This document shows positions 13,821 to 26,256 of a stretch of 64,000 nucleotides of DNA, in pieces. Under the pieces are notes generated by a model that saw only the letters and a program-made list of their open reading frames with translations, was not told where the DNA came from and did no database searches. The stretch comes from an uncultured Gemmatimonadales bacterium (GTDB taxonomy: Bacteria > Gemmatimonadota > Gemmatimonadetes > Gemmatimonadales > GWC2-71-9), in assembly GCA_963795085.1 (NCBI GenBank), contig CAWCFX010000003.1, positions 224,001 to 288,000 of the forward strand. The letters are read 5' to 3'. The translations under genes and the position numbers were made by a program. Numbering within the stretch: position 1 is the first letter of the stretch; every line of letters begins with the position of its first letter.

Positions 13821-13849
13821 TTGACACTGCAACATCTCGCAAGTAACGT
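13821..13849 (+). promoter_or_regulatory. Putative sigma-70 promoter of the crp-like gene
   Basis: Perfect TTGACA-N17-TAACGT. Confidence 0.7.
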
Positions 13850-13881
13850 ATTCACACAAACTTCCGACTGTGAGGGGCTCC

Positions 13882-14559
13882 GTGGCTCTTTCTCCACTAG
13901 ATGTGCTGAATCGGGTACCACTGTTCGAGAGTCTCCCCGAGAACGAGCTGGCGCATTTCGCCGAACTGACCCGGGAGAAGACCTACCCCAAGGGCAGCGT
14001 GATTCTCTTCGAAAATGACCGCGGGGATTCACTTTTCCTGGTTGCTTCCGGCCAGGTGAAGGTGGTCCTGATCGGCGAGGACGGCCGGGAGGTCATCCTG
14101 TCGGTACTCGGACCGGGGACCTTCTTTGGCGAGATGGCGCTGATCGACGATTCCCCCCGCTCCGCCCATGTCATCGCGATGGAGGATGCGACGCTCCTGG
14201 TGCTGAGGCGGGAGGATTTTCAGCAGCGGCTGCGCACCTCCCCCGAGGTGGCGATTGGGCTGTTGAGAGAGCTGTCGCGGCGGCTTCGCCGTGCCGACGA
14301 GAAGATCGGGAGCCTGGTGTTGCTGGACGTCAACGGCCGGGTGGCCGATCTGTTGCTCCGGGCTGCGGCGGAAGAGGGGGGCGAGCTGATTCGCCGCAAA
14401 CTGACGCATCACACCATCGCCCAGATGATCGGCTCCAGCCGGGAGACCGTTTCCCGGACCATGCGGGATTTCGTGGAGCGTGGGCTCATCACGGTGACCC
14501 GCAAGGACATAACCATCACGGACCGGCCCGCCCTCTTGGCCGCCGCCGGGCGTTCGTGA
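13882..14559 (+). CDS. Crp/Fnr family transcriptional regulator, cNMP-binding CRP type
   Basis: Phosphate-binding cassette FFGEMALIDDSPRSA; HTH IAQMIGSSRETVSR. Confidence 0.93.
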   Translation: MALSPLDVLNRVPLFESLPENELAHFAELTREKTYPKGSVILFENDRGDSLFLVASGQVKVVLIGEDGREVILSVLGPGTFFGEMALIDDSPRSAHVIAMEDATLLVLRREDFQQRLRTSPEVAIGLLRELSRRLRRADEKIGSLVLLDVNGRVADLLLRAAAEEGGELIRRKLTHHTIAQMIGSSRETVSRTMRDFVERGLITVTRKDITITDRPALLAAAGRS

Positions 14560-14593
14560 GGACACTCACCACCCGCAAGTGACCCTGCTCACA
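14555..14593. promoter_or_regulatory. Two tandem CRP-like boxes
   Basis: CGTGA-GGACAC-TCACC (14555-14570) and AGTGA-CCCTGC-TCACA (14578-14593). Confidence 0.65.
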
Positions 14594-14644
14594 CGATTTC
14601 CGCCCTCCCGGGGCGGCACAGATCTCGCTAGCTGAGGTAGGCAA

Positions 14645-15517
14645 GTGACCTACACAATTACCTTCTGGGGCACCCGGGGTTCGATCCCGACGCCGGGACC
14701 GCACACGGCCCGTTACGGAGGTAATACGTCCTGTGTCGCAGTGGCCGGCGGCAAGGATGAGTTGGTCATCCTGGATGCCGGCAGCGGCATCCGCCCCCTC
14801 GGGCGAGAGCTGCACCGGATCGGGAATGGCAGCGGCGGCATGAGCGCGGATATCCTGGTTTCCCATACTCACTGGGATCACATTCAGGGATTGCCGTTCT
14901 TCCAGCCGCTCAACGTGAAAGGCAACTCGGTCCGGATCTACGGCTCCGCCCAGGAGGGCGTCGGCCTGGAAAGCATCCTCGACCGGCAGATGGACCCGAT
15001 GGTGTTTCCGATCCCGCTGCGCGCGCTGGCCGCGGAGCTCACGGTCACCGAAATCGCGGGCGGGGCGTTCGAAATCGACGGGTTCACGGTGGAAGCGTTT
15101 CGCCTGCGGCACCCGGGCACCACCCTCGGCTACAAGCTGGTGCCGGTGCGCGGCGGTCAGACCATGGCGTACCTGACGGACAACGAACTGGGTCCCGGCG
15201 GGAATTACGACGTCCCCGCAGACTGGCGGCAGCAACTGGTAAGATTTCTCGACGGCGTGCATACCCTGATTCACGACGGGATGTACTCCGAGGAACTGAT
15301 GGAACAACGGGCTGGCTGGGGCCATTCGACCCCGCAGCAGGCGGTGGACCTGGCGCATGAATGCGGTGCGGAACGGCTGATCATTTTCCACCACGAGCCG
15401 GAGCACGACGACGATACGATCGACCGCCTGGTCGCCGAGACCCGGCGCGATGCGAAGCACCTGGCGCCCCGCCTCGTGGTGGAGGCCGCCAGCGAAGGGA
15501 TGCACCTCAACCTCTAG
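14645..15517 (+). CDS. MBL-fold metallo-hydrolase (RNase Z/cyclic-nucleotide phosphodiesterase-like)
   Basis: FWGTRGSIP, YGGNTSC, DAGSG, HTHWDH (HxHxDH), WGHST, FHHEP. Confidence 0.88.
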   Translation: MTYTITFWGTRGSIPTPGPHTARYGGNTSCVAVAGGKDELVILDAGSGIRPLGRELHRIGNGSGGMSADILVSHTHWDHIQGLPFFQPLNVKGNSVRIYGSAQEGVGLESILDRQMDPMVFPIPLRALAAELTVTEIAGGAFEIDGFTVEAFRLRHPGTTLGYKLVPVRGGQTMAYLTDNELGPGGNYDVPADWRQQLVRFLDGVHTLIHDGMYSEELMEQRAGWGHSTPQQAVDLAHECGAERLIIFHHEPEHDDDTIDRLVAETRRDAKHLAPRLVVEAASEGMHLNL

Positions 15518-15529
15518 CGAGGAGTGGAT

Positions 15530-16219
15530 ATGCGCGGGACCATGCTGTTGGCGTTGGCTCTGACTGCCACGATGCCGGCGCTGGCCGAGGCCCAGGACAC
15601 CCGGCCCGGCATCGCGGTGATGCCGTTCCAGAACGGTGGGTCCTACGGGCGGGACAAGGAAGATTTCGACGCGCTCCAGGTCGGGATCCCGGCCATGGTC
15701 ATGAGCGAACTCGCCCAAAACCCGGGCGCCCGGGTGGTGGACCGGAGCGACATCAACCGGATTCTGGACGAGCAGAACCTGGCCACGGATGGCCGTGTGG
15801 ATGCCTCGACCGCCGCCCGGGTGGGCCGGCTGGTGGGCGCCCGCTACATGATCATGGGCACCTTCATCGACCACTACGGCAAGATGCGGATCGACGCCCG
15901 CATTGTGGACGTGGAGACCAGTGAGATCCTCAAGGTGGTGCAGTCGGGCCCCCGCGAGCGGGACAAGCTGTTCGACATGATCAGCGAACTGTCCACCTCC
16001 ATCATGGCCAACACCAAACTGCCACCGCTTCCGGTCCAGCAGGCCCAGGCCGAGCCGCGGCGGATTCCGACGGAGGCGCTGACCTTCTACAGCCGGGCCC
16101 TGCTCTATGAGGATCGGGGGGATGCGGCCAAGGCCGAGGAGTATTACAACCGGGCCCTGGAAGTCTTCCCGACCTACGCGGAAGCCCGCGAAGGGCTGCG
16201 AAAGATCCGGCCCTCCTGA
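15530..16219 (+). CDS. Secreted CsgG/FlgO/TolB-N-like domain protein with C-terminal TPR
   Basis: Signal peptide ending AEA; IAVMPFQN, VVDRSDINRILDEQ, AARVGRLVGA, DARIVDVET; TPR-like AEEYYNRALEVFPTYAEA. Confidence 0.75.
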   Translation: MRGTMLLALALTATMPALAEAQDTRPGIAVMPFQNGGSYGRDKEDFDALQVGIPAMVMSELAQNPGARVVDRSDINRILDEQNLATDGRVDASTAARVGRLVGARYMIMGTFIDHYGKMRIDARIVDVETSEILKVVQSGPRERDKLFDMISELSTSIMANTKLPPLPVQQAQAEPRRIPTEALTFYSRALLYEDRGDAAKAEEYYNRALEVFPTYAEAREGLRKIRPS

Positions 16220-16223
16220 CCTC

Positions 16224-17003
16224 GTGAGCGCCCCGATTGCCGGGATCGGGCGCTCAACGGCGCGCTGGCTCGCCCGGATGGGCGCGCTGGCGCGTTTCGC
16301 GTTTGAGGCAGTGCGGGCCATCCCCACCCTGCCCGGCGCGGGCCGCCGGGTCGCGGGCCGCATCCTGCTCGACCAGGTCCGCTTTACCGCACTCGAGGCG
16401 GTCGGCCTGGTCGTCCTGTTGAGCGGCATCTTCAGTTTCCTGGTCATCAAGATGGCGGTGCGCGAGCTGGGTAACATCGGGGCCTACGACCTGATCGGCC
16501 GCCTGATCGTAGTGATCATCGTGCGGGAACTCGGCCCTATCCTCACTGCGCTGGCGGTGCTGGGCCGGAGCGGCACCGCGATCACCGCTGAGCTGGCCAC
16601 CAATACCGTGCTCCGCGAAGTGCGGGCCCTGGAAGGCATGGGCATCGACCCCTTTCACTACCTGGTACTGCCCCGGCTGGCCGGGTGCATCATCTCGGTC
16701 ACCGTGCTCATCGTGCTCTTCGACACCGTCTCGCTGACCAGCGGCTTTCTCGCCGCCGGCGCCGAGGGCATGAGCGGCGACCGCTACTGGGGGGTGGTCC
16801 TGGCGTCGCTCACGGCCCGCGACGTCGGGGTGACCTTCGGGAAGGGAATCCTCTTCGGGTTGGTGATCGGGTTGTGGCCCAGCTATCACGGACTGGCGGT
16901 GCGCCGGGGTCCCACGGAAATCCCCCAGGCCGTCATCCGGTCCACGGTCGGGGCCATCGTGATGATCTTCGTGGTCAGCGCCCTGTTCGTGGTGGTGCAA
17001 TGA
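16224..17003 (+). CDS. MlaE family ABC permease
   Basis: VRELGPILTA, GRSGTAITAEL, EVRALEGMGIDP-x2-YLVLPR motifs. Confidence 0.88.
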   Translation: MSAPIAGIGRSTARWLARMGALARFAFEAVRAIPTLPGAGRRVAGRILLDQVRFTALEAVGLVVLLSGIFSFLVIKMAVRELGNIGAYDLIGRLIVVIIVRELGPILTALAVLGRSGTAITAELATNTVLREVRALEGMGIDPFHYLVLPRLAGCIISVTVLIVLFDTVSLTSGFLAAGAEGMSGDRYWGVVLASLTARDVGVTFGKGILFGLVIGLWPSYHGLAVRRGPTEIPQAVIRSTVGAIVMIFVVSALFVVVQ

Positions 17004-17692
17004 GCGGCCCCGACCTGTCGACCGCGCCGCTGGTGTTTCAAGGCATCACCACGACCGGCAGCGCCGCCGGGATCTTCGAGCTGGAGGTGCTGCCGCACCA
17101 GACGGTGGTCCTGGTCGGGGACGAGAACAGCGGGGTCGACAGCCTCTGCGAGTTCGCGCTGGGGCTGGAAACACCGGTGGCCGGGCAGGCCCTGGTCTTC
17201 GGCACCGCCATCGGCGCCCTTCCCCGCCGGGAGCAACTCGCCTTCCGCCGGCGTTTGGGATACCTTCCTGCCGGGGATGGACTGCTCAGCAACCTGAGCC
17301 TCCGGGACAACATCCGGCTGCCTCTCCGGTTCGGCAGCAACTTCAAACCAGACGAAATCGAAGGCCGGGTGGACGTCATCCTCGCGATACTGCGGCTGCA
17401 GCGGATCGCGGGGGAGCGCCCCGCCCAGGCCAATGAAGAGCAGCGCCGCCGGGCGGCGCTGGGCCGCGCGCTGGCGTTCGACCCCGACCTGGTCCTGCTG
17501 GAACAGCCCTTCGTAGGGCTCACCGACCGGGTGTCCGCCGAGTTGCTCGAAGTGGCCCGCGGCGGCGAAACCGCCGAGGGCGCCCGCCGCACCGTGTTCA
17601 TCACCGGACAGGGAATACCGATGCTCCTTCGCACCAGAGTGGAACAGGTGGTCCAGATGGCCGACAGCCGCCGGATGCCAAGCCGGGTATGA
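17000..17692 (+). CDS. MlaF-like ABC nucleotide-binding-domain protein with degenerate catalytic motifs
   Basis: NBD scaffold is recognisable (RRRLGY, NLSLRDNI-x-LPL, RALAFDP). Walker A reads GDENSGVDS, signature ANEEQ, Walker B LLEQP. Confidence 0.8.
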   Translation: MSGPDLSTAPLVFQGITTTGSAAGIFELEVLPHQTVVLVGDENSGVDSLCEFALGLETPVAGQALVFGTAIGALPRREQLAFRRRLGYLPAGDGLLSNLSLRDNIRLPLRFGSNFKPDEIEGRVDVILAILRLQRIAGERPAQANEEQRRRAALGRALAFDPDLVLLEQPFVGLTDRVSAELLEVARGGETAEGARRTVFITGQGIPMLLRTRVEQVVQMADSRRMPSRV

Positions 17693-18636
17693 TCGGCCAG
17701 CGCATGACCGACGTGATGATCGGCGCCCTGGTCGTCGGCGCCGTAGCCGTACTGGTCGGGGCCTTCGTGTTCACCAAGGGGTGGAACAAGCAGCAGTTCG
17801 ACCTCTTCATGCGCACCGAATCGGCCCGCGACCTTACCTCCGACACCAAGGTGTTGTTGCAGTCGCTCCCGGTCGGCGAAGTCAAGGCGATTTCGCCCCA
17901 GGTGGACTCCACCAGCGGCCGGCTCCGGTTCGTCGTGCACCTGCGCATCGACGAACGGTACCAGGACGGAACCGAACTCCATCTGCCGCTGGGCACCCGG
18001 GCCGAGATCGTCCAGTCCAACGTGCTGGGCGGCGTCAGCATTGAGTTGCGCACCCCGGAGCGGGCCATCGGCCGGCTGGCGCCGGGAGACACGGTGGGCT
18101 CGGCCCGGCTCTCTTCCGGGCTCGACGCGATCGCCCAGATTGCCGACTCGCTCCGGCAGCAGATCGCCCTGGTGCTGACCGATACCCGGTCGCTGATCGA
18201 GAACCTGAATTCCACGGTGGTGATGGCCCGGCGGGAACTGCAGCTCACGGCGCCCGAGGCCCGCGCCACGATGGACGAAATCCAGGCCTCCCTGACCCAG
18301 TTGCGACCCACGTTGGCCCGGGCCGATACCCTGATGGCCACCGCGACCGGCCGGATGGACGGGGTCAGCGACTCCATCGCCGCTACCCTGTCCCAGACCC
18401 GGACCATGATCGCCCACCTGGACAGTCTCGCGGTCACCGCCACGAGCATCGCGGGAGAGAACCGGGAGGTCGTCCGCACCACGGCCGAGAACCTCTACAT
18501 CATCTCCGCGAAGCTGGAACACTTCCTCGACCAGGTCAGCCGGCGCCCGCTCCGGATGATCTATGGCGTCCGCCCGCTGGCGGACAGCGCCCGCCGACCC
18601 GCCGAAAGCGGCGGGGAGACCGACACCGCGCCATGA
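17689..18636 (+). CDS. MlaD/MCE domain protein with C-terminal helical region
   Basis: N-terminal TM; L-x3-TKV-x4-LPVGEV-x2-I; AEI-x4-LGG-x2-IEL; ends RRPLRMIYG. Confidence 0.85.
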   Translation: MIGQRMTDVMIGALVVGAVAVLVGAFVFTKGWNKQQFDLFMRTESARDLTSDTKVLLQSLPVGEVKAISPQVDSTSGRLRFVVHLRIDERYQDGTELHLPLGTRAEIVQSNVLGGVSIELRTPERAIGRLAPGDTVGSARLSSGLDAIAQIADSLRQQIALVLTDTRSLIENLNSTVVMARRELQLTAPEARATMDEIQASLTQLRPTLARADTLMATATGRMDGVSDSIAATLSQTRTMIAHLDSLAVTATSIAGENREVVRTTAENLYIISAKLEHFLDQVSRRPLRMIYGVRPLADSARRPAESGGETDTAP

Positions 18637-20573
18637 AATACCGCCTGTTGCACACTTCCGGCTGGGACCCCGCGGGGGTCGGTGACGCCCTCGCCGCGGA
18701 ACAGGTGGAAACCGCCCTGTTTCCGGCAGCGCTGACCCCGGCGGCCGACGGGCTCCCCACCGTGCTGATCCTGGATCCCGAGGGCCGCCGTCTGCTGCCC
18801 GCCTCGCTGCTTGAATCACTCCGGGAAAACGGCACCCCGATCGTGGCACTGGGCGCCCCCGGCGAAGCGGACGTGCCCGGAGACCTGCCGGTGGACCTGC
18901 TGAGCGGGTTCGTGAAGGCGCCGGTGCCGCCGCGTGAGCTGCTGGTGGCGCTCCGCTCGGCGTACCGCGAGGCGGTGGCCCGGCAGGAGGCTGCCCGTGT
19001 CCGGAAGGAGATCGCCACCCGGACCCGCGAGGTCACCGAACTAGCCGAAATCGGGATCAAGCTCACCACCGAGAAGAACTACAACACCCTGCTGGACCTG
19101 ATCCTGTTTCAGGCCCGCCGGATCACCCAGTCGGACGCGGGCAGCCTGTACCTGGTCGAGATGGATGAGGCCGGCGTCCGCCGGCTCCGATTCAAGCTGA
19201 CCCAGAACGACAGCCGCCCCGATATCCCGTTCGTCGAGTTCACCATGCCGATCAACCATTCCAGCCTCGCGGGGTACGCGGCGGCGGAAGGGGAGCCGCT
19301 GGTGTTCAACGACGTGTACCTCCTGCCCCCGGACGTCGCCTACTCGTTCAACCGCTCGTTCGACGAGCGATACGGCTACCGCACCCGCTCCATGCTGGTG
19401 ATTCCCATGCAGAATCACAGCGGCGAGGTGATCGGCGTGGTGCAGCTGATCAATCGGAAGCAGGACCCGGCGCACAAACTGGAGACCCCCGCCGATACCG
19501 ACCGCTACGTGCAGCCGTACAGCCCCCACCTGGTCAAGCTGGTGCGCTCGCTGGCGGGCCAGGCCGCCGTGGCGCTGGAGAACAGCCAGCTATATGCCGA
19601 GATCGAGCGGCTGTTCGAGGGGTTCGTGCGGGCCGCGGTGACCGCGATCGAGCAACGGGACCCGACGACGTCCGGTCACTCGGAGCGGGTAGCCAACCTG
19701 ACGGTGGGACTGGCCCGGGTCGTGGACCGGGTGGACCAGGGTCCCTACCGGCTGGTCCGGTTCAATACCGAGCAGATCCGGGAGCTGCGCTATGCCGGAC
19801 TGCTGCACGACTTCGGGAAGGTCGGGGTCCGGGAAAAAGTGCTGGTCAAGGAGTACAAGCTCTACCCGGCGGACCTGACCCTGATCCGGCAGCGGCACGC
19901 CTTCCTGCTGCGTACCGCCCAGTGGGAATACGAGAAGGAACGAGTCCGCTACCTGGAAGAGAAGGGAACCAGCGGCTATCCCGGGTTCATGGAAGGGCTC
20001 AAGGCGCGGTTCGCGGAGGAGCAGGCCAACCTGGACCGATTTCTCTCCCTGGTCCACGATTCCAACCGGCCGACGGTGCTGGCCGAAGGGAACTTCGAGG
20101 CGCTCAAGGAGTTTGCCGACCGCAGCTACCAGGCGATCGACGGCACCTCCCTGCCCTTTCTCACCTCCGACGAGGTACGCTACCTGAGCATCCGGCGGGG
20201 AACCCTGGACGAACTGGAGCGGGTCGAGATCGAAAGCCACGTGAATCACACGTTTAATTTCCTGCGGGACATCCCCTGGACCCGGAACCTCAGCCGGGTA
20301 CCCGATATCGCCCACGGGCACCACGAAAAGCTGGACGGCAGCGGGTACCCCCGCAAGGTGGGCGCCACGGAAATCCCGGTGCAGACCCGGATGATGACCA
20401 TCAGCGACATCTTCGACGCGCTGACCGCGAAGGACCGGCCCTACAAGCGGGCAGTGCCGACGGACCGGGCGCTCGACATCATGAGTTCGGAGGTCAAAGG
20501 CGGGATGCTGGACCCGGAACTGTTCACGATGTTCGTGGAGGCGAAAGTGTTCGAGGAACAGGCAGAAGGATGA
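18633..20573 (+). CDS. GAF + HD-GYP cyclic-dinucleotide phosphodiesterase with receiver-like N-terminus
   Basis: GAF (DAGSLYLV...FDERYGYRTRSMLVIPM...GVVQLIN); RDPTTSGHSERV, LLHDFGK, HHEKLDGSGYP, DIFDALT, RPYK. Confidence 0.9.
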   Translation: MKYRLLHTSGWDPAGVGDALAAEQVETALFPAALTPAADGLPTVLILDPEGRRLLPASLLESLRENGTPIVALGAPGEADVPGDLPVDLLSGFVKAPVPPRELLVALRSAYREAVARQEAARVRKEIATRTREVTELAEIGIKLTTEKNYNTLLDLILFQARRITQSDAGSLYLVEMDEAGVRRLRFKLTQNDSRPDIPFVEFTMPINHSSLAGYAAAEGEPLVFNDVYLLPPDVAYSFNRSFDERYGYRTRSMLVIPMQNHSGEVIGVVQLINRKQDPAHKLETPADTDRYVQPYSPHLVKLVRSLAGQAAVALENSQLYAEIERLFEGFVRAAVTAIEQRDPTTSGHSERVANLTVGLARVVDRVDQGPYRLVRFNTEQIRELRYAGLLHDFGKVGVREKVLVKEYKLYPADLTLIRQRHAFLLRTAQWEYEKERVRYLEEKGTSGYPGFMEGLKARFAEEQANLDRFLSLVHDSNRPTVLAEGNFEALKEFADRSYQAIDGTSLPFLTSDEVRYLSIRRGTLDELERVEIESHVNHTFNFLRDIPWTRNLSRVPDIAHGHHEKLDGSGYPRKVGATEIPVQTRMMTISDIFDALTAKDRPYKRAVPTDRALDIMSSEVKGGMLDPELFTMFVEAKVFEEQAEG

Positions 20574-26240: not shown

Positions 26241-26256
26241 TGTGAACTGGATCACA
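26241..26256. promoter_or_regulatory. Perfect CRP-consensus box
   Basis: TGTGA-ACTGGA-TCACA. Confidence 0.7.

Follow-up and report, generated by a model that had tools for sequence, protein, structure and literature searches.

Clusters that join a CHASE2 cyclase, a CRP-family regulator and a phosphodiesterase, such as Sinorhizobium cyaD1-clr, also encode a secreted protein, and to our knowledge none contains an MCE component. MCE systems without an ATPase exist (PqiABC, LetAB), and ABC complexes in which one site has degenerated are familiar. In E. coli MlaFEDB, the homologues of MlaE, MlaF and MlaD are encoded in one operon. A minimal MlaEFD of Veillonella parvula, described in excerpts of PMC10665443, is a three-gene core with start/stop overlaps, a long MlaD and no MlaA, MlaB or MlaC; it moves phospholipid and has tolC and tamB downstream, and the same excerpts present MlaEFD alone as the ancestral norm. 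The locus analyzed here lies in a 64,000-nucleotide stretch of Gemmatimonadales DNA (phylum Gemmatimonadota; hereafter the window) and shares with both systems a MlaE–MlaF–MlaD operon, and with that of V. parvula also the overlaps, the long MlaD and the missing MlaA, MlaB and MlaC. In contrast to E. coli MlaFEDB, all ATPase motifs and the C-terminal handshake extension are lost, MlaD is long, the operon lacks MlaB, MlaA and MlaC were not found in the genome, and the setting is a signalling operon. From the V. parvula system, as excerpted, it differs in its dead ATPase, in being a supernumerary copy and in having CsgG-TPR and HD-GYP proteins as neighbours, and unlike the CHASE2 clusters it has no cyclase.

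All seven genes lie on the + strand, and Pfam matches every label proposed for them in the earlier note. They encode a CRP-family regulator (13870..14559; cNMP_binding and HTH_Crp_2; start placed to within about 8 codons), an MBL hydrolase resembling RNase Z and class II phosphodiesterases (14645..15517; Pfam and structure comparison), a predicted secreted protein with a CsgG/LpoB/FlgO-like domain and one TPR hairpin (15530..16219; Pfam, signal peptide read from the sequence), an MlaE-type permease of a divergent subfamily (MlaE*, 16224..17003; Pfam MlaE, 1.8e-51), an MlaF-type pseudo-ATPase (MlaF*, 17000..17692; motif tallies and structure model), a long MlaD with an N-terminal transmembrane helix and one MCE domain (MlaD*, 17689..18636; Pfam) and a cytoplasmic GAF/HD-GYP protein composed of an N-terminal domain, a GAF domain and an HD-GYP domain with a long insert (18633..20573; Pfam). 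The ATGA overlaps previously described at the MlaE–MlaF, MlaF–MlaD and MlaD–HD-GYP junctions were read at 17000, 17689 and 18633. A consensus scan of the window for promoters and terminators called no promoter; a candidate sigma-70 promoter of crp (13821..13849, + strand; TTGACA, 17 nt, TAACGT), missed by that scan, was recognized by eye. A terminator-like match on the + strand within hdgyp was rejected, with 2 matches in all against 4.2 expected. The window contains no cyclase gene, as had been stated; the one class III cyclase of the genome is on another contig.

The CRP of the locus matches the CRP/GlxR regulators (M. tuberculosis CRP, C. glutamicum GlxR and E. coli CRP) in its phosphate-binding cassette, recognition helix and GTGA-N6-TCAC sites, and its nearest solved relative is M. 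tuberculosis CRP (3d0s). Its cNMP pocket is intact (G87, E88, R97, S98) and its recognition helix is of the CRP type (R191, E192, R196), each position of the G-E...R-S cassette and the R-E-x3-R helix being kept in 83 or 84 of 84 orthologues. However, where CRP/GlxR regulators have T-S or T-N in the C-helix (T127 and S128 or N, adenine contacts conferring cAMP specificity), the locus CRP has A or V followed by an aspartate that is invariant in 84/84 orthologues.

Two CRP-like boxes had been reported before the MBL gene, and both are present: box 1 (14555..14570, + strand), which overlaps the crp stop codon, has 2 mismatches, and box 2 (14578..14593, + strand) has 1. Within the window alone, CRP-like matches are not above chance (6 against 11.9 expected). 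Across relatives, box 1 is kept as GTGA-N6-TCAC at 58 of 81 crp–MBL junctions, with a shuffle rate of 0.0006 and 0 matches in a control of 29,970 bases of crp coding sequence; it occurs at 53/65 loci with HD-GYP and at 5/16 without. The proposal that box 1 is merely the crp stop codon was rejected, the box remaining where that codon lies elsewhere. Of box 2, it is chiefly the upstream GTGA half that is kept, 23 nt beyond box 1 (51/58 loci). This half-site lies around -42.5 relative to a putative internal promoter, whose start is predicted for the family about 72 nt past the first G of box 1; by the CRP position rule and comparison with CRP/GlxR the second site sits near the class II position. 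Elements of the promoter are in register, with TTG at +36 in 25/51 loci and TAnnnT at +60 in 30/51; a consensus -10 at the family offset is absent from the window's own sequence. Genome-wide, 49 of 86 boxes fall in non-coding space (17.7 expected), and a box lies upstream of the sigma-factor gene in only 3 of 13 valid relatives, 6 further rows having been left out as invalid. Since the box is enriched in non-coding space across the genome, a dedicated circuit does not follow from CRP control, and this CRP resembles a global regulator. The earlier picture of a CRP-controlled module is thus borne out in the conserved box and the downstream promoter but not in the regulator, which appears to be global.

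The MBL protein shares its fold and metal ligands with RNase Z and with the class II MBL-fold cNMP phosphodiesterases B. subtilis YhfI, Apyc1 and yeast PDE1; HxHxDH and the distal His and Asp ligands are all invariant. It is about equally similar to RNase Z, which ranks first, YhfI, PhnP and yeast PDE1 (TM 0.6–0.7), with 14–20% identity to any solved member, and it scores far too low for the NCBIfam models of RNase Z and of cNMP-degrading enzymes (NF041851, 27.7 bits where 400 are required). YhfI prefers cAMP and cGMP according to excerpts of PMC9117128. The MBL enzyme is a candidate cNMP phosphodiesterase.

In the GAF/HD-GYP protein, the metal ligands (H, HD, H, HH, D), GYP and RxY[K/R] are invariant in 81/81 sequences. 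With motif meanings and definitions taken from excerpts of bioRxiv 10.1101/2021.11.05.467447, it shares HD, HHExxDGxGYP, RxYK and all binuclear ligands with the PmGH-type HD-GYP described there, and differs in having K-A-K-K for KPG, an insert of about 140 residues, an N-terminal domain and no equivalent of E185. The latter position, an acidic residue in the trinuclear subclass and placed here by spacing from H349 rather than by structural alignment, is occupied by T, A or I at 345 and T at 346. The protein is predicted to be a binuclear phosphodiesterase that converts c-di-GMP to pGpG, the missing E185 equivalent predicting pGpG as end product.

The CsgG-TPR protein lacks a lipobox Cys (0/76 with Cys in residues 12–40), and no PqiC was among the best 60 of its 96 PDB matches. 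CsgG and PqiC folds are related at clan level. PqiC of PqiABC and of Mla-Pqi chimeras is an outer-membrane lipoprotein (ABC_trans_aux, PF03886), and PF03886 was not found in the host genome. The candidate role of a PqiC-like cap is weak, as the CsgG-TPR protein is also kept where the trio is absent and carries no lipobox.

The central feature of the locus is MlaF*, whose pseudo-ATPase nature the earlier note overlooked. Its motifs read GDENSGVD (Walker A), ANEEQ (signature), VLLEQP (Walker B), VGLT (D-loop) and TGQG (H-loop). Among 160 group A MlaF* sequences, GK[ST] of Walker A and the SGG signature occur in none (0/160 each), the Walker B Asp and the H-loop His occur in 3 each, and the D-loop Asp is nearly always lost. 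The C-terminal tail is short, with 25–33 residues beyond the H-loop versus 52–70. The structure model (pLDDT 92) retains the ABC fold, with TM 0.83 to MlaF in 6xbd. At E ≤ 1e-30, the family counts no fewer than 1071 database proteins. In E. coli, the MlaF variants K47A and E170Q do not complement, as stated in excerpts of PMC7367683. The sequence shows that canonical ATP binding and hydrolysis are out of reach for MlaF*, and consequently MlaE*F*D* should not be an ATP-driven lipid pump.

MlaF* is maintained nonetheless. Its dN/dS across 10 pairs is 0.075–0.29, similar to that of neighbour genes and indicative of purifying selection, on which ground a decaying pseudogene was rejected; all three trio genes are under strong purifying selection. 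Near-invariant residues occupy 41 of 230 positions of MlaF*, among them acidic residues conserved where the P-loop once was. In several of the nearest Walker A-positive relatives the H-loop His is already absent, suggesting that the motor was lost gradually. A working heterodimer of MlaF* with canonical MlaF was rejected by inference, because both composite ATP sites would be impaired. In the open-access PMC and bioRxiv literature, we found no MCE system whose sole ATPase is stripped of every catalytic motif yet conserved across many genera.

The trio otherwise meets the MlaEFD parts list, with an MlaE permease, an ABC-fold MlaF and an MCE-domain MlaD in an operon. The family cores are kept in MlaE* and the long MlaD*; MlaE* can be aligned to E. 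coli, Acinetobacter and Pseudomonas MlaE and to YrbE1, and the MlaD* tail of about 170 residues ends in a conserved RRP-x-R-x-x-x-G-V. The host genome holds two canonical mlaEFD operons elsewhere. MlaE* is 26–32% identical to their MlaE proteins and MlaF* likewise diverges from its canonical paralogues, both deriving from a different MlaEFD lineage. Another mlaE is present in 40/40 trio-bearing relatives tested (at least 2 mlaE each). The reported absence of mlaA, mlaC and pqiC genes from the window is correct and extends to the genome (93% complete), where MlaA, MlaC and PqiC were not found. It is not a distinctive sign of repurposing, since both canonical operons lack these partners too and MlaEFD alone is ancestral according to the excerpts of PMC10665443. 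The non-transport role proposed earlier is plausible on account of the dead ATPase, and not on the ground originally given.

The mlaE-mlaF-mlaD trio occurs in 38 of 251 genomes and is retained in 21 genera of two families. Synteny extends well beyond close relatives, the seven genes standing in order at 36/40 loci and the other 4 ending at contig edges; the loci counted are kin and hence not independent. The flanking housekeeping genes rpmE, prfA and prmC are just as syntenic. HD-GYP directly follows the group A trio at 40/40 genome loci and at 38/38 metagenome loci with room for it, and the mlaD–hdgyp junction is a 4-nt overlap in 37/38 loci, stricter than the junctions within the trio. A search of species genomes with MlaD gave only 3 loci, and the range beyond the phylum is drawn from metagenome contigs without taxonomy.

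The notion of a module built around the Mla complex did not survive this comparison. Of 40 HD-GYP loci taken from trio-less genomes, 28 have crp-MBL-CsgG-HD-GYP, and about 11 losses of the trio left HD-GYP in place (some nodes are weak), so HD-GYP does not need the trio. The deletions are clean with differing breakpoints, and clear mlaE or mlaD scars were seen in 6 of 22 gaps tested and in L086; one of 37 genome loci (L070) carries a truncated mlaE and a frameshifted mlaF. The locus is thus nested and not a single unit: a crp-MBL core, then CsgG-TPR, GAF-HD-GYP and the optional trio. Two more distant relatives (L102, L103) have the same MBL and HD-GYP genes flanking a CHASE2 cyclase. Eight lost-versus-kept comparisons revealed no relaxed selection in HD-GYP or CsgG regions after trio loss (mean difference within 0.02), and there was no signal of trio-dependent conserved sites in HD-GYP, CsgG, MBL or CRP, the first pair giving no CRP value because the L071 row was unusable. 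Related dead clades occur in other lineages. A third one (group C, 33 proteins) is head-to-head with a multi-GAF GGDEF protein at 3/3 loci seen, sister (group B) trios adjoin unrelated genes (FHA and PP2C, M48 peptidase, MFS and rpoC), and the dead trio L166 has no signalling neighbour. In three genomes the sister trio is unlinked, and each of them carries an orthologue of this HD-GYP elsewhere.

Our main reading, with a probability of about 0.4, is that a non-pumping MCE complex feeds envelope state into c-di-GMP turnover, as an optional motorless trio in a conserved second-messenger operon. Here, cNMP-bound CRP would occupy both sites at the crp–MBL junction and drive the internal promoter of mbl-csgG-mlaE*-mlaF*-mlaD*-hdgyp, steps whose sites are visible in the sequence. 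The MBL enzyme may degrade cNMP as negative feedback and HD-GYP may cut c-di-GMP to pGpG, such that a rise in cNMP would lower c-di-GMP. With canonical MlaEFD copies elsewhere able to do the pumping, MlaE*F*D* would still span the inner membrane, its long MlaD reaching into the periplasm. Lipid load or envelope state could then set the shape of MlaE*, and folded MlaF* could serve as a cytoplasmic docking face that localizes or tunes the translationally coupled GAF-HD-GYP; the last three steps are the least certain. We infer the coupling of the trio to c-di-GMP turnover, the trio being an add-on input without which the remaining operon works. The dead motor under selection, the ever-present spare mlaE, the HD-GYP and GGDEF associations and the CRP box speak for this reading. 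Against it, trio loss should relax selection on a dedicated interface, yet no HD-GYP or CsgG region shows this, some losses being recent; co-loss of trio and HD-GYP may be simple adjacency; group B trios and L166 have no c-di-GMP neighbours; and MBL is equally near RNase Z and PhnP. Complex prediction of full-length HD-GYP (27-row alignment) with MlaF* (28 rows) scored 0.00 in both runs and counts neither for nor against this reading. More speculatively, an entire MCE/Mla ABC complex may have become a transmembrane receptor, in which the long MlaD and MlaE sense lipid or envelope state and MlaF* signals by contact to GAF-containing c-di-GMP enzymes. These would be a multi-GAF diguanylate cyclase in one of two clades and, in the other, an HD-GYP phosphodiesterase under cNMP-CRP control.

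Some of the observations that weaken the main reading fit a trio acting as an ATP-independent conduit for lipids or hydrophobic ligands, or as an inner-to-outer membrane bridge, with MlaF* purely structural, holding MlaE* together, and CRP co-regulating it in some growth state without any contact with the phosphodiesterases. The family cores kept in MlaE* and MlaD*, the varied settings of group B trios, the unrelaxed HD-GYP, the H-loop His already missing in Walker A-positive relatives and the precedent of PqiABC and LetAB all agree with such a role. However, it leaves the rigid hdgyp coupling (37/38) and the second, GGDEF association unexplained and sits poorly with the near-invariant positions of MlaF*, including the former P-loop acidic residues, and we consider it possible but doubtful. 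A passenger caught between csgG and hdgyp since an ancestor, with a minor unrelated job and now being lost from an ordinary CRP-regulated signalling cluster, would account for the frequent clean deletions with their differing breakpoints and scars, for the general synteny of the region and for the damaged genes of L070. We regard this as improbable, as it is at odds with the strong purifying selection on three genes, their retention in 21 genera and two families and the dead clades in other lineages.

The ubiquity of a second mlaE (40/40) also invites the idea that the trio provides regulatory or poison subunits, MlaF* or MlaE*F* swapping into canonical Mla and halting lipid transport when CRP is active. 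From ABC architecture, a mixed MlaF/MlaF* dimer with both composite ATP sites impaired would suit an inhibitor, but the 26–32% identity to the canonical paralogues, the separate MlaEFD lineage, the lack of the C-terminal extension and the fact that MlaF* travels with its own MlaE and MlaD make this unlikely.

A spare, motorless lipid transporter kept under selection in many Gemmatimonadota suggests a transporter turned sensor or scaffold. It offers a natural test of what MlaE and a long MlaD are capable of when no ATP is used, a point of relevance to the debate over the direction and energy use of MCE transport. If the coupling to HD-GYP is true, it would add a new way for envelope lipid state to act on c-di-GMP, and would link cNMP to c-di-GMP in a phylum that is abundant yet little studied. 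Comparison is practical, since close relatives with and without the trio occur within single genera.

The seven co-oriented genes proposed for this locus were borne out in the sequence: genes for a CRP-family regulator, a metallo-beta-lactamase-fold (MBL) hydrolase, a CsgG-TPR protein, MlaE, an MlaF-like protein, MlaD and a GAF/HD-GYP protein lie on the plus strand at 13870-20573 of the window, each label being backed by Pfam, and the three ATGA overlaps are as first given. The two CRP-like boxes are present at 14555-14570 and 14578-14593; counted over the window by itself, matches of this kind do not exceed the chance level (6 versus 11.9 expected). The divergent rpmE-prfA-prmC genes and a convergent downstream gene border the cluster.

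The earlier note had argued that the MlaEFD complex was repurposed because its usual partners are missing. This argument fails, since G000, the genome of the window, has two more mlaEFD operons, canonical and with intact ATPase motifs, yet no MlaC, PqiC or MlaA was found anywhere in this genome (93% complete). According to PMC10665443, MlaEFD is the ancestral core and MlaABC the exception, and MlaD proteins are mostly long. The main oddity of the locus is its divergent MlaF copy (MlaF*), not the missing partners. The MlaF* model shows a confident ABC domain (pLDDT 92; TM 0.83 to E. coli MlaF) and the protein is devoid of the C-terminal extension. ATPase motifs were scored in MlaF* and its close homologues (group A, n = 160: the window, 39 loci excluding the frameshifted L070, plus the top 120 of at least 1071 database matches). 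None of the 160 proteins carries Walker A GK[ST] or the SGG signature. The Walker B Asp is replaced by Glu in 155 and the D-loop Asp by Thr in 148; at the H-loop, 139 proteins have Gln instead of His and 3 keep the His. In E. coli MlaF, K47A or E170Q singly is enough to abolish function, as stated in PMC7367683. Across 10 pairs, dN/dS of MlaF* was 0.075-0.29, similar to that of neighbouring genes.

Two sister clades of ATPase-dead MlaF, groups B and C, were also analyzed. Group B was scored on the 61 of 63 matches that are 190 residues or longer, and none of these has GK[ST]. It occurs in 3 of 251 genomes, next to FHA and PP2C genes, an M48 peptidase gene, or an MFS gene and rpoC, and in each of the three the HD-GYP orthologue is located elsewhere. 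At L133:4451-10378, group B mlaEFD lies immediately 3' of, and co-oriented with, a PP2C phosphatase gene and a gene for a multi-FHA protein. In group C (n = 33), Walker B D-to-E and H-loop H-to-Q replacements were seen in every protein where the pattern matched, and GK[ST] within the first 110 residues in one. In all 3 loci seen (L151:2132-9197, L150 and L158; Pfam run on L151 only), the group C trio and a gene for a multi-GAF GGDEF protein are arranged head-to-head. Downstream of the trio, L150 and L151 have a gene for a xylose-isomerase-like TIM barrel, and L151 also has an MscS channel gene with a cNMP-binding domain. Groups A, B and C lie together on the same side of a branch (94/86) that is neither shown nor rejected. 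Their nearest Walker A-positive relatives, several already without the H-loop His, are mostly encoded in mlaE-mlaF-mlaD operons that have a gene for a TPR protein next downstream. At L195:3340-7268, mlaE is separated from a Walker A-positive mlaF by a gene of the operon's MBL family; this gene is absent from the close relative L206.

Counting G000 itself, orthologues of the CRP, HD-GYP, MlaF* and MlaE* (the divergent MlaE of the operon) were found in 145, 97, 38 and 40 of 251 phylum genomes, respectively, the unpublished genome G157 being included in the first two tallies and in the denominator. Each of the 40 relatives with the trio that were tested carries one or more additional mlaE genes. 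Among 40 fetched loci (all 37 other MlaF* loci and 3 from a separate species-genome search), the order mlaE-mlaF-mlaD-hdgyp was kept in 40 and the full seven-gene order in 36, contig ends interrupting the remaining 4. Since flanking housekeeping genes are equally syntenic, this alone indicates only vertical descent. Seeding with MlaE gave 80 metagenome loci, of which 63 are close relatives; HD-GYP follows the trio in 38/38 with room, and it is preceded by CsgG in 56/56 and by CRP and MBL in 27/27. Two control sets comprised 40 of the 59 HD-GYP loci from genomes without MlaF* and, for CRP, 20 loci taken from genomes that lack the HD-GYP orthologue. A contiguous, trio-free crp-mbl-csgG-hdgyp cluster was found in 28 of the former, and the crp-mbl pair was kept in 19 of the latter. 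The expected co-occurrence holds for gene order in relatives but not for a single seven-gene unit, the locus being nested. On a PrfA+CRP+MBL tree, in which several nodes are weak and good support separates about 8 groups, a single trio gain requires 15 losses, 11 of these keeping HD-GYP. Remnants of mlaE or mlaD with differing breakpoints were detected in 6 of 22 gaps tested, L086 retaining most of mlaD; together with the tree, these indicate repeated deletion of the trio as a block. L070 (genome G142) has a truncated mlaE and a frameshifted mlaF with mlaD and hdgyp intact, which is either early decay or sequencing error. L111 and L115 have neither the trio nor hdgyp in the interval from csgG to the downstream gene; in their place stand other genes, about 2.4 and 5 kb in length, the L115 segment containing a different HD-domain-like match.

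The CRP box GTGA-N6-TCAC was found at the crp-mbl junction in 58 of 81 loci (shuffle rate 0.0006), namely 28/37 with the trio, 25/28 with HD-GYP only and 5/16 with neither. A second GTGA follows 23 nt after the first in 51 of the 58; among these 51, TTG at +36 (25 loci) and TAnnnT at +60 (30 loci) place the two sites near -65.5 and -42.5, the latter agreeing with the class II position of CRP sites. A consensus -10 at the expected offset (+60) is absent from the window sequence itself. In the CRP, both the cNMP pocket and a recognition helix of the CRP type are retained; its C-helix reads A/V-D, and this Asp, by analogy, may favour cGMP. The sole class III cyclase match in G000, a soluble FHA-GAF-cyclase on another contig (L131:1465-3072, contig C1), is a candidate source of the effector, although its residues are, by eye, of the ATP type. 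Throughout G000, 49 of 86 boxes lie outside coding cores versus 17.7 expected (crude gene calls), which suggests that the CRP is probably a global regulator with the operon as one target; some of these sites may be Rex sites. A perfect consensus box occurs at 26241-26256, in the gap between the stop codon of an aldehyde dehydrogenase gene and the beginning of a gene of the sigma-70 family. Among 13 valid relatives, 3 also show such a box ahead of this sigma-factor gene.

The HD-GYP protein retains the complete set of binuclear ligands, together with GYP and RxY[K/R], in 81/81 loci, and no transmembrane segment was found in it. Using the motifs in bioRxiv 10.1101/2021.11.05.467447, c-di-GMP specificity is predicted, with pGpG as the product because E185 is lacking. 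G000 has 13 GGDEF matches. The MBL protein has a complete metal site and a fold about equally like RNase Z, YhfI, PhnP and yeast PDE1. It is a likely candidate for a cNMP phosphodiesterase, since YhfI prefers cAMP/cGMP (PMC9117128), an RNase Z-like gene exists separately in G000, and a CHASE2 cyclase gene is flanked by the same MBL and HD-GYP genes in two relatives that are more distant. In these genomes of other orders (L102:674-5820 and L103:569-5483), genes for the MBL, a caspase-like protein (by eye), a FecR-like protein and the TPR-bearing CHASE2 class III cyclase are found upstream of hdgyp. CsgG-TPR is a secreted non-lipoprotein and is retained where the trio is absent.

The MCE trio has a dead motor yet is under selection, is always a spare copy, is translationally coupled to hdgyp (mlaD-to-hdgyp in 37/38 loci) and lies 3' of a conserved CRP site. 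No operon of this kind and no motorless MlaEFD was described in the search listings and opening lines of abstracts of open-access papers in PMC and bioRxiv. This motorless trio is the solid part of our account, and the signalling mechanism that we infer from it is testable. To the latter we assign a probability of about 0.4: cNMP-CRP would switch on both phosphodiesterases, MBL and HD-GYP, and the trio would contribute an envelope input through the HD-GYP protein docking on MlaF*. Two results count against this mechanism, as 8 comparisons revealed no relaxed selection on HD-GYP or CsgG after trio loss, and no c-di-GMP neighbours were found in group B loci or in L166. Somewhat less probable is that the trio acts as an ATP-independent conduit or bridge merely co-regulated with the phosphodiesterases. 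We consider it clearly unlikely that the trio inhibits canonical Mla, and just as unlikely that it is a passenger.

With respect to docking on MlaF*, a conserved group A insert, ARGGE..EG.RRT, at about residues 186-198 (window 17555-17595) before the H-loop strand is possibly a docking loop. Group B is without such an insert, and group C has one at the equivalent place.
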